From NCBI GenBank assembly GCA_963664815.2, contig CAXXHB010000003.1, positions 3,877,191 to 3,901,190 of the forward strand: DNA of 24,000 nucleotides, in the 5' to 3' direction. Of the stretch, positions 17,078 to 18,537 are shown one piece after another. The stretch's first letter is position 1; every line of letters begins with the position of its first letter. The position numbers and the translations under genes were made by a program. The notes under the pieces are model-generated. The model did not search any database, had not been told where the DNA came from, and saw only the letters and a list, made by a program, of their open reading frames with translations. The DNA is from Spirochaetota bacterium (lineage in GTDB: Bacteria > Spirochaetota > UBA4802 > UBA5550).

Positions 17078-17368
17078 CTAACAGCAGTTTCCCGAAGAAC
17101 TATTACAGTCGCAAGCCGGTTCGGTTCCTCTTATCATTCCGTTAATAACAGCTGCGGCACACCCTACTCCCGCCTTGACTGATATTGCCCCGAAGCTGCA
17201 GTTTTTTTCACACGCGCCGCATTCCATACACCTGTCTTTATTCATTATGGATACTTTTCTGTTTTCCATTTTAAACACGGGATGTGGGCAAACCTCCATG
17301 CACATCCCACAACCTGTACACTTTTCAGGAAAAACCTGTAAAGTTGTAATGTTCTTTAAATATATCAT
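17078..17368 (-). CDS. hgcB: HgcB, the 2x[4Fe-4S] ferredoxin of the mercury-methylation pair
   Basis: 96 aa. The first cluster motif is C17-x2-C-x2-C-x3-CP. The second is CMECGACEKNC, which carries the hgcB-diagnostic C(M/I)ECGA signature. A conserved GVGCA cysteine and the terminal vicinal CC (GNCC-stop) are present. The start overlaps the hgcA stop as ATGA. Confidence 0.92.
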   Translation of the reverse strand: MIYLKNITTLQVFPEKCTGCGMCMEVCPHPVFKMENRKVSIMNKDRCMECGACEKNCSFGAISVKAGVGCAAAVINGMIRGTEPACDCNSSSGNCC

Positions 17369-18537
17369 AAAAACCCCCAGTCGGAAACCTTGTAGAGTAT
17401 AAGAAATATAAATGATATTAACGCTCCCGTTATATAAACCGGGAACGCAATTTTGATTTCCTTTTTTACGCCGGAAAGATTTGTATATGTCGAAGCCCCG
17501 GTGAACTGCAGCGCCATATATGATGAAAACACAGGAAAAAGAATCAGCGCCGAAATTATCATAAATATATTATAAGAATCTAATCCCCCGGTCAGGTATA
17601 TAACAGAAACAAAGAAAACCATGCCTGCAATCCAGCCCTTAAGAGCAAAAGACCTGAAAGGAATAAACGGCAGAAATACAGGCGTAAAGAATGCTCCGGT
17701 AAATACCGAAATCAGTCCCGCAGCAAGAAAAAGATATCCTTTCATAATTGATTCTTTGAATATAATTCCTTCAGGAGTCAGGCCGAATATCAGGAGAATA
17801 ACCAAAGCAAATAGCGGGAACTTGACAAGTATCTGACGCAGCTCTATCGGAGTAAGTATCAGTCTGTCAATAATGTCAAAGCGTACTCTCCGCATCTCCT
17901 CATCACAGGTATATCCGTTTGATATATACTTTTTCAAATCTGCTGCCCGTACCGGACCGTACATAACTTTAAATCCGCTTCTCTTTGTCACCTCATTTGG
18001 ATTTACACCTGGAGCGCCAAGCTGAGGAACAATAATTTTCCTGTGTGAAATAATATCAGTTATTTTTGAAAGCATAATCCGCTTTACAAGTTCATCCGTA
18101 CCAAAAGTCCCCTTACCTGCCGCGCACCATACATTTATACCTTTAGTATCAAGAACAAGTATCCAGGCATTAATTCCATTAAGTGACGACCTCAGCGCGT
18201 CAAAACTCATCTTGTAGTTTGCCGTTACAAAAACATCCGATTTTTCATCGGGACTTCCGGCTGCATAAAGGCCAGGTTTAACAGTATAATTCATCCTGAA
18301 TGAGCTCACCCTCGATTTAAAAGTTTCCCATAAATCACGTGATGAAAGAACAGTAGATACAACAGGAACGCTTGTAACTTCAGTCGCGATGTGCCTGACT
18401 ATATAAGGAGGAGTTGCCGCCCCGGTTCCCGTATTATTTAAAGAATCAGTACATCCGCATGAAGTTTTTCCCACAGACTTCACAGTTTTCAGTGGTGAAA
18501 GCAATTTATCAGTATCATTTACTCTTTGAAATTCCAT
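17365..18537 (-). CDS. hgcA: HgcA, the corrinoid-binding membrane protein of the mercury-methylation pair
   Basis: The cap-helix signature GINVWCAAGKGTFGT was verified codon by codon (N-V-W-C-A-A-G-K at 18112-18135, Cys138). It sits in a CFeSP-like corrinoid domain (VFVTANYKMSFDALR...AWILVLDTKG) followed by about 5 C-terminal TM helices. Confidence 0.93.
   Translation of the reverse strand: MEFQRVNDTDKLLSPLKTVKSVGKTSCGCTDSLNNTGTGAATPPYIVRHIATEVTSVPVVSTVLSSRDLWETFKSRVSSFRMNYTVKPGLYAAGSPDEKSDVFVTANYKMSFDALRSSLNGINAWILVLDTKGINVWCAAGKGTFGTDELVKRIMLSKITDIISHRKIIVPQLGAPGVNPNEVTKRSGFKVMYGPVRAADLKKYISNGYTCDEEMRRVRFDIIDRLILTPIELRQILVKFPLFALVILLIFGLTPEGIIFKESIMKGYLFLAAGLISVFTGAFFTPVFLPFIPFRSFALKGWIAGMVFFVSVIYLTGGLDSYNIFMIISALILFPVFSSYMALQFTGASTYTNLSGVKKEIKIAFPVYITGALISFIFLILYKVSDWGFL

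Follow-up and report, generated by a model that had tools for sequence, protein, structure and literature searches.

Does the 24,000-nucleotide stretch analysed here (the window; positions 3,877,191 to 3,901,190 of contig CAXXHB010000003.1, assembly GCA_963664815.2, Spirochaetota bacterium) encode a genuine mercury-methylation gene pair, hgcA-hgcB, or a look-alike from the same corrinoid protein family, and by what regulator would such a pair be controlled? To our knowledge, hgcAB is the only genetic marker known for microbial methylmercury production, and each correctly identified carrier refines the list of potential producers of this neurotoxin. We consider it very likely that the window holds a bona fide hgcA-hgcB pair, situated on the chromosome of a Leptospirales-like member of the Spirochaetota within an arsR-hgcA-hgcB(-MBL) cluster, where MBL denotes the gene of a metallo-beta-lactamase (MBL)-fold hydrolase. 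The locus is an ordinary additional member of a known system; hgcAB has been seen in this phylum before, and the sequence is already public. What it adds of most use is a conserved, putative operator of the ars type, located together with its repressor gene upstream of hgcAB.

An earlier sequence-only reading of this DNA had described two complete, overlapping genes, and their coordinates, lengths and ATGA overlap were all reproduced (Table 1). The genes are two separate open reading frames (ORFs), each with its own start and stop codon, and a chance origin is excluded by profile hidden Markov model (HMM) E-values of 3.5e−123 for HgcA and 1.3e−36 for HgcB. The 4-nt sequence ATGA at 17365–17368 joins the hgcB start to the hgcA stop, and a Shine-Dalgarno-like GGGGG run is located 6–10 nt 5′ of the hgcB start. 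The same reading had called the pair translationally coupled; the overlap stands, and coupling of hgcB translation to that of hgcA is, judged from this overlap, probable rather than established. In related loci, hgcB lies immediately 3′ of hgcA in 78 out of 80 cases, and the two genes overlap in 26 out of 78.

Table 1 Features of the hgcAB locus (positions are those of the window; aa positions refer to HgcA)
Feature	Position	Strand	Description
Putative promoter and ArsR operator	18890..18918	minus	−35 TTGACT (18918–18913), 17-nt spacer, −10 TATATA (18895–18890)
Palindrome ATCGTA-TATT-TACGAT	18895–18910	minus	Inside the 17-nt spacer
arsR	18548..18883	minus	111 aa, ArsR/SmtB metalloregulator; ATG at 18883 (the ORF list gives an upstream TTG at 18889)
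hgcA	17365..18537	minus	ATG start, 390 aa, corrinoid methyltransferase
HgcA N-terminal tail (aa 1–38)		minus	Disordered in the AlphaFold2 model
HgcA Cys27-Gly-Cys29	18451..18459	minus	TGC GGA TGT, in the N-terminal tail
HgcA CFeSP-like corrinoid-binding domain (aa ~45–215)		minus	Alpha/beta domain in the model
HgcA cap-helix motif NVWCAAGK (aa 135–142)	18112–18135	minus	Contains Cys138; encoded by AATGTATGGTGCGCGGCAGGTAAG
HgcA five-helix transmembrane region (aa 222–386)	17380..17874	minus	From AlphaFold2 (DSSP) and hydropathy
hgcB	17078..17368	minus	ATG start, 96 aa, 2×[4Fe-4S] ferredoxin
MBL-fold metallo-hydrolase gene	16002..16988	minus	328 aa from ATG at 16988; Pfam Lactamase_B, HxHxDH motif

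The placement of HgcA was based on curated HMM cutoffs together with identity ranking. The 390-aa protein scored 410.9 bits with the NCBIfam model NF040863 (HgcA_corrinoid; cutoff 275), 194.3 bits with the model of HgcAB-like fusions (NF043039; below its cutoff of 285) and 69.5 bits with the gamma subunit model of the corrinoid iron-sulfur protein (CFeSP) and the acetyl-CoA decarbonylase/synthase (ACDS) complex (below its cutoff of 306). The comparison that the sequence-only reading had put forward as the one to decide against its own claim, i.e., scoring against CFeSP and HgcA-like paralogues, thus came out on the side of HgcA. A non-methylating paralogue mistaken for HgcA, either of the CFeSP type of the Wood-Ljungdahl pathway (AcsC-CdhD) or a fused HgcAB-like relative, would fit with Pfam reporting only a generic CdhD corrinoid domain (aa 84–176), with the label 'acetyl-CoA decarbonylase/synthase complex subunit gamma' that some databases give to close homologues, and with CFeSP proteins being the only experimentally solved relatives. 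A PDB sequence search returned CFeSP gamma (large) subunits only, but the similarity is confined to aa 84–207, where NVWCAAGK aligns with '…SVLTAWAAGK' of CFeSP 2h9a, with Cys in HgcA and Thr in CFeSP. The CFeSP large subunit (AcsC/CdhE; 2h9a, 2ycl, 4c1n, 4djd) shares a homologous Rossmann-like corrinoid domain and cap helix over this region (sequence E ~1e−9; Foldseek root mean square deviation ~3 Å over ~127 columns), yet it is soluble, has an N-terminal [4Fe-4S] domain and a TIM barrel that HgcA lacks, pairs with AcsD and uses methyl-tetrahydrofolate (methyl-THF) via MeTr, whereas HgcA is membrane-bound through a five-helix domain absent from CFeSP and uses S-adenosylmethionine (SAM) (PMC11588087). 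In addition, hgcA and hgcB are separate rather than fused, and no CODH/ACS genes were found in the 24-kb window. With this evidence, a misassigned paralogue is extremely improbable.

The HgcA assignment is further carried by motif and fold. The cap-helix motif NVWCAAGK with Cys138, pointed out in the sequence-only reading, was borne out by translation; it was found in all 81 homologous loci recovered (loci compared with the window are numbered here with the prefix L), and residues N135–K142 are among the 66 invariant columns of a 52-sequence HgcA alignment. Cys138 is predicted to coordinate cobalt through its thiolate, as the lower axial ligand. An AlphaFold2 model built from the same alignment (mean predicted local distance difference test score, pLDDT, 84.1; predicted template modelling score 0.75) has helices at aa 222–252, 260–287, 297–321, 324–350 and 355–386 according to DSSP, with pLDDT mostly > 85, and the hydropathy profile has five hydrophobic segments within aa ~235–385, in line with the 'about five' transmembrane helices first suggested to follow a CFeSP-like domain. 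The best PDB match of the model in Foldseek was 9a0b_A, the deposited integrative HgcAB model (E 6.5e−19, 328 columns), and the CFeSP large subunits ranked after it with ~127 residues aligned.

The partner protein was assigned with similar clarity, as HgcB reached 124.3 bits with NCBIfam NF040864 (HgcB_ferredoxin; cutoff 99), matching positions 2–93 of the 93 in the model, while Pfam reported ferredoxin domains. Its two CxxCxxCxxxC motifs span C17–C27 (C17TGCGMCMEVCP) and C47–C57 (C47MECGACEKNCS, which includes CMECGAC), Cys70 is located inside GVGCA, and Cys95-Cys96 are the final two residues, so that the C(M/I)ECGA signature, the GVGCA cysteine and the terminal CC pair named beforehand as HgcB hallmarks are all present. 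The extra Cys and the C-terminal Cys pair of HgcB are essential in strain ND132 (PMC11588087).

The founding pairs, characterized both genetically and biochemically, are those of Pseudodesulfovibrio mercurii ND132 (DND132_1056/1057) and Geobacter sulfurreducens (GSU1440/1441). The window locus resembles ND132 in the two-gene order, the cap-helix motif with its essential Cys (C93 in ND132, C138 here), the CFeSP-like corrinoid domain followed by five transmembrane helices, and the two [4Fe-4S] motifs of HgcB, with the essential C73, C94 and C95 of ND132 corresponding to C70, C95 and C96. It differs in sequence (36% identity to 9a0b_A in the Foldseek alignment), in host phylum (Spirochaetota vs. 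Desulfobacterota), in the 4-nt hgcA/hgcB overlap and in the N-terminal tail of HgcA, where a plain C-G-C stands in place of the proposed selenocysteine form P-C-U-G-P. This tail is ~50 residues long, and 58 of 81 HgcA homologues carry a CC, CxC or CCC motif in theirs. An N-terminal CC/CU motif of HgcA was described by Haft (bioRxiv 10.1101/2022.07.06.499078), and C27-G-C29 is a plain-Cys CxC variant of it. Selenocysteine in HgcA or HgcB of the window was ruled out, all relevant codons being TGC or TGT. As a separate observation, an uncultured Syntrophaceae locus (L073, CAZCDS010000006.1) has an in-frame stop right after a Cys ('...ATESC*TTET...') in the N-terminal extension of hgcA, where CC is found in the tails of other HgcA proteins; this agrees with the Cys-Sec (CU) selenoprotein form that has been proposed for HgcA.

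If the mechanism of the characterized P. mercurii enzyme is carried over to the window locus, as we infer here by analogy, HgcA would act as a membrane-anchored cobalamin protein, to which the two [4Fe-4S] clusters of HgcB would pass low-potential electrons, bringing the corrinoid to Co(I). SAM would then methylate Co(I) to methyl-Co(III), with Cys138 serving as the lower axial thiolate ligand, and the methyl group would be transferred to Hg(II) presented as a bis-thiolate, giving methylmercury. Handling of Hg(II) would probably involve Cys70 and Cys95-Cys96 of HgcB, and possibly C27-G-C29 of HgcA. For the characterized enzyme, it was reported previously that SAM and not methyl-THF donates the methyl group, that a Cys thiolate serves as ligand and that HgcB transfers electrons (PMC11588087). 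With SAM as the donor, the nearby metF is not needed to account for methyl supply and is a conserved neighbour.

Directly upstream, the arsR stop codon lies 10 nt before the hgcA ATG. The encoded regulator matched Pfam HTH_5 (47.9 bits) and the NCBIfam model HTH_metalloreg (64.8 bits, cutoff 55); an assignment to the BigR, CmtR or SdpR types was rejected, all three models remaining below their cutoffs. It carries C41-I-C43 and C80-Y-C82 (numbered from the ATG), whose columns are invariant in a 15-sequence alignment, as well as a C-terminal C-N-C. With its winged-helix HTH_5 domain, one CxC pair ahead of the recognition helix and a second 37 residues further on, it has the features of the hgcAB-linked, four-Cys 'ArsR2' type. 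In ND132, hgcAB shares a transcript with the gene of ArsR2 (Cys C47/C49/C86/C88), an arsenic-responsive regulator of the pair (bioRxiv 10.1101/2022.10.17.512643). The four Cys of the window ArsR have the same spacing as these published positions, so the two regulators, both encoded directly 5′ of hgcA, are likened by their Cys positions; the C-terminal C-N-C is an extra of the window protein.

A putative promoter precedes arsR, with a palindrome inside its spacer. With the −10 element TATATA ending 6 nt 5′ of the arsR start codon, the transcript probably has no leader or a very short one. The palindrome occurs only once in the window (0.03 occurrences expected), and a block reading TATCGTAT.TT.ACGATA shows no variation among six related loci, unlike its diverged flanks. 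Directly 5′ of arsR, between a TTGACT −35 and a TA-rich −10 element, the palindrome was also located at L003:9626, L005:9485, L038:6382, L083:4626, L084:4626, L085:4628 and L088:3973, being conserved in eight hgcAB loci as well as in ars operons. Two of the hgcAB-linked cases (L005, L038), again 5′ of arsR, belong to two other spirochaete lineages. The same palindrome, ATCGTATATTTACGAT, precedes arsR in an arsR-arsM-acr3-arsC operon of Bacteroidota (L088), and a version with a 1-nt difference is found in an arsR-arsN-MIP-arsC operon (L086/L087). Relatives of the window ArsR at ~60% identity head such ars operons: the four-Cys repressors of L086–L088 are 58–61% identical to it, with CIC and CYC invariant and a C-terminal Cys pair common, and they control arsM/acr3/arsC or arsN/MIP/arsC, whereas the window ArsR precedes hgcAB. 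The palindrome is a likely ArsR operator, and TTATCGTATATTTACGATA a putative ArsR binding sequence.

A scan of positions 15500–19300 found no terminator-like sites between arsR, hgcA and hgcB. The arrangement suggests that hgcAB is probably under a canonical metalloid-responsive ArsR/operator module and transcribed as arsR-hgcA-hgcB, a single promoter 5′ of arsR most likely driving expression. Repression would probably come from the four-Cys ArsR, bound to ATCGTA-N4-TACGAT between the −35 and −10 elements, and be lifted by a thiophilic metalloid, As(III) for example.

Several observations weigh against the reading of the locus as an ArsR-controlled mercury-methylation cluster. In the cofactor-free AlphaFold2 model the cap-helix segment (aa 131–146) is a coil, with a pLDDT of 64 for aa 131–140, although this might be expected when the model holds no cofactor. 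The second Fe-S motif of HgcB closes with C-S and not with C-P. A sigma-70 scan of 15500–19300 yielded 11 sites vs. 12.6 expected in shuffled sequences and missed TTGACT-17-TATATA, and the promoter call therefore rests on conservation across loci. The arsenic response of ND132 was condition-dependent, and S-adenosylhomocysteine (SAH) also had an effect (bioRxiv 10.1101/2022.10.17.512643). Finally, a literature search returned no report of an experimentally tested methylator in the Spirochaetota. The presence of hgcAB in Spirochaetes was reported repeatedly (PMC7438021, PMC7536318).

A broader idea, which we consider less likely than not, is that hgcAB was captured by a complete arsenic-type module, consisting of the four-Cys ArsR and ATCGTA-N4-TACGAT, in this lineage and in at least two others of the spirochaetes (L005, L038), the same pair controlling the arsM/acr3/arsC operons of Bacteroidota. 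In that case arsenite or a different thiophilic metalloid, and not mercury, would trigger the formation of methylmercury in these organisms, and HgcAB could belong to a metalloid-stress regulon with a selected substrate other than Hg. As ATCGTATATTTACGAT precedes arsR both in hgcAB loci and in true ars operons, the proposed link between arsenic and hgcAB becomes directly testable outside the Desulfovibrionaceae, and the operator could help to predict when environmental spirochaetes express hgcAB.

The same regulatory evidence bears on the possibility that the genes are true hgcAB with mercury methylation as a side reaction. Their selected role would then lie elsewhere, for example in a corrinoid activity that responds to metalloids or dehalogenates halomethanes and that ArsR switches on under arsenic or thiophilic stress. 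Regulator and operator together form a module of canonical ars operons, ND132 ArsR2 responds to arsenic and SAH while a response of hgcAB to mercury is not known, and HgcA is 57–70% identical between genomes whose housekeeping neighbours are 89–94% identical, i.e., it diverges much faster. A 2026 preprint moreover described the dechlorination of a halomethane, CCl4, by heterologously expressed HgcAB (bioRxiv 10.64898/2026.04.26.720869), an activity that may bear on which function is under selection. On the other hand, no arsB/acr3, arsC or arsM and no dehalogenation-related genes were seen in the 24-kb window, and all residues needed for mercury methylation are kept. We regard a side reaction as rather unlikely, and it would concern the physiological role only, leaving the assignment of the genes as hgcA and hgcB uncontradicted.

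In terms of host, the exact HgcA, HgcB, ArsR and MBL proteins are already present in public assemblies (NCBI, Logan, ENA) on a 4,265,687-bp contig, and a 52-kb ENA contig (ERZ21878447), 99.994% identical to the window, carries the same proteins. The nearest other HgcA proteins are 57–71% identical, and the named ones are labelled Spirochaetota; because of these low values, the window represents a species- or genus-level lineage separate from its Spirochaetota relatives. The best matches among GTDB species representatives were a Spirochaetota metagenome-assembled genome (MAG; 65%) and HGW-Spirochaetae-5 (63%), followed by an uncultured Leptospirales MAG (59%) and Nitrospirota (52–57%). For MTHFR and Pta, encoded beside the cluster, identity to the proteins of the same Spirochaetota/Leptospirales MAGs is 89–94%, which places the host in that lineage and means that hgcA evolves faster than its housekeeping neighbours. 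Judged from these proteins, the host is an uncultured, Leptospirales-like spirochaete, and the locus adds a full-length, well-contextualized Spirochaetota example on a long contig, leaving the system itself unchanged. A related spirochaete contig of 176 kb (L083, ENA ERZ21878447 ctg44987l) has its own arsR-hgcA-hgcB-MBL cluster with an HgcA 67% identical to that of the window, and since it comes from the same metagenome, at least two hgcAB-carrying members of the lineage co-occur in the sample.

The sequence-only reading had regarded the surroundings of the pair as unusual, a view that did not hold, since the order pta - metF - ... - arsR - hgcA - hgcB - MBL - AraC - fn3 surface proteins recurs in related Spirochaetota MAGs (L003, L082, L083, L084) and is partly kept in L001 and L002. 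The loci of HGW-Spirochaetae-5 (PGXT01000070.1) and GCA_035403545.1 have the same arsR-hgcA-hgcB-MBL cluster flanked by metF-pta and AraC/fn3, and they share the operator and the N-terminal C-G-C. Apart from the HgcA divergence given above, the window differs from them between arsR and metF, where it has SH3 and HAD genes; in the relatives this space is either empty or taken by an MCP gene.

The remaining member of the cluster, the MBL gene, starts 89 nt 3′ of hgcB on the same strand, and its product could be a fourth functional component of a new four-gene variant (e.g., an enzyme acting on a product linked to a thiol, SAH or an organometal). The gene follows hgcB directly not only in the window but also in L001–L003 and L082–L084, where the protein is better conserved than HgcA (70–75% vs. 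59–70%), no terminator-like site lies between hgcB and the MBL gene, and the two may be co-transcribed. The family is small and uncharacterized (118 matches at E ≤ 1e−10), almost confined to Leptospirales-like Spirochaetota and Asgard archaea (~45% identity; Lokiarchaeum ossiferum, Promethearchaeum syntrophicum), and the nearest solved structure is the likewise uncharacterized ST1585 (3adr). Yet homologues at 57–58% identity occur in hgc-less Spirochaetota relatives as Fur-(peroxiredoxin)-MBL-CDF-PadR-NMO, and the Asgard homologues have unrelated neighbours, on which grounds we read the MBL gene as a resident gene beside arsR-hgcAB rather than a component of the system. The hgc-less contexts share their CDF, PadR and NMO neighbours with the surroundings of hgcAB in L002 and L085, as would fit a resident MBL gene with arsR-hgcAB lying next to it. 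Furthermore, in L085 arsR-hgcAB occurs with no MBL gene beside it, the gene is absent from the other 77 hgcAB loci, and a promoter-like TTGGAA-17-TATAAT is located directly at the MBL ATG. A fourth component is therefore quite improbable, and the MBL gene is probably a conserved neighbour, not a functional part of the arsR-hgcA-hgcB system.

Over the whole window, an Rfam scan at gathering thresholds gave no match (e.g., to a cobalamin or SAM riboswitch near hgcA), and no tRNA genes were found. The window pta (21948–22940, 330 aa) is intact, while the ENA contig ctg42899l (L081) differs from the window by one indel, with pta called as two fragments (162 and 178 aa); the indel is probably a long-read assembly error. 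The fn3/Big_2/AraC genes occupying ~13 kb between the MBL and CDF genes were considered as a window-specific insertion, which was partly rejected, as AraC and fn3 follow the MBL gene in L003 and L082–L084; genes of the CDF side lie near the hgcAB cluster only in L002 (CDF/GntP/YibE-F) and L085 (GntP/YibE-F). Positions 6108–15553 comprise two paralogous modules, each combining surface-protein and regulator genes, one with an fn3 protein of 468 aa and an AraC protein of 365 aa, the other with fn3 (471 aa), Big_2/Flg_new (846 aa) and AraC (367 aa), and the GC content rises up to 0.50 at 13001–14000, within the Big_2 gene. Four consecutive minus-strand ORFs at 2595–4829 (195, 148, 159 and 215 aa) had no Pfam match; three of them have homologues (60–68%) 3′ of the hgcAB-MBL cluster in L001, and some proteins of this type have signal-peptide-like N-termini.

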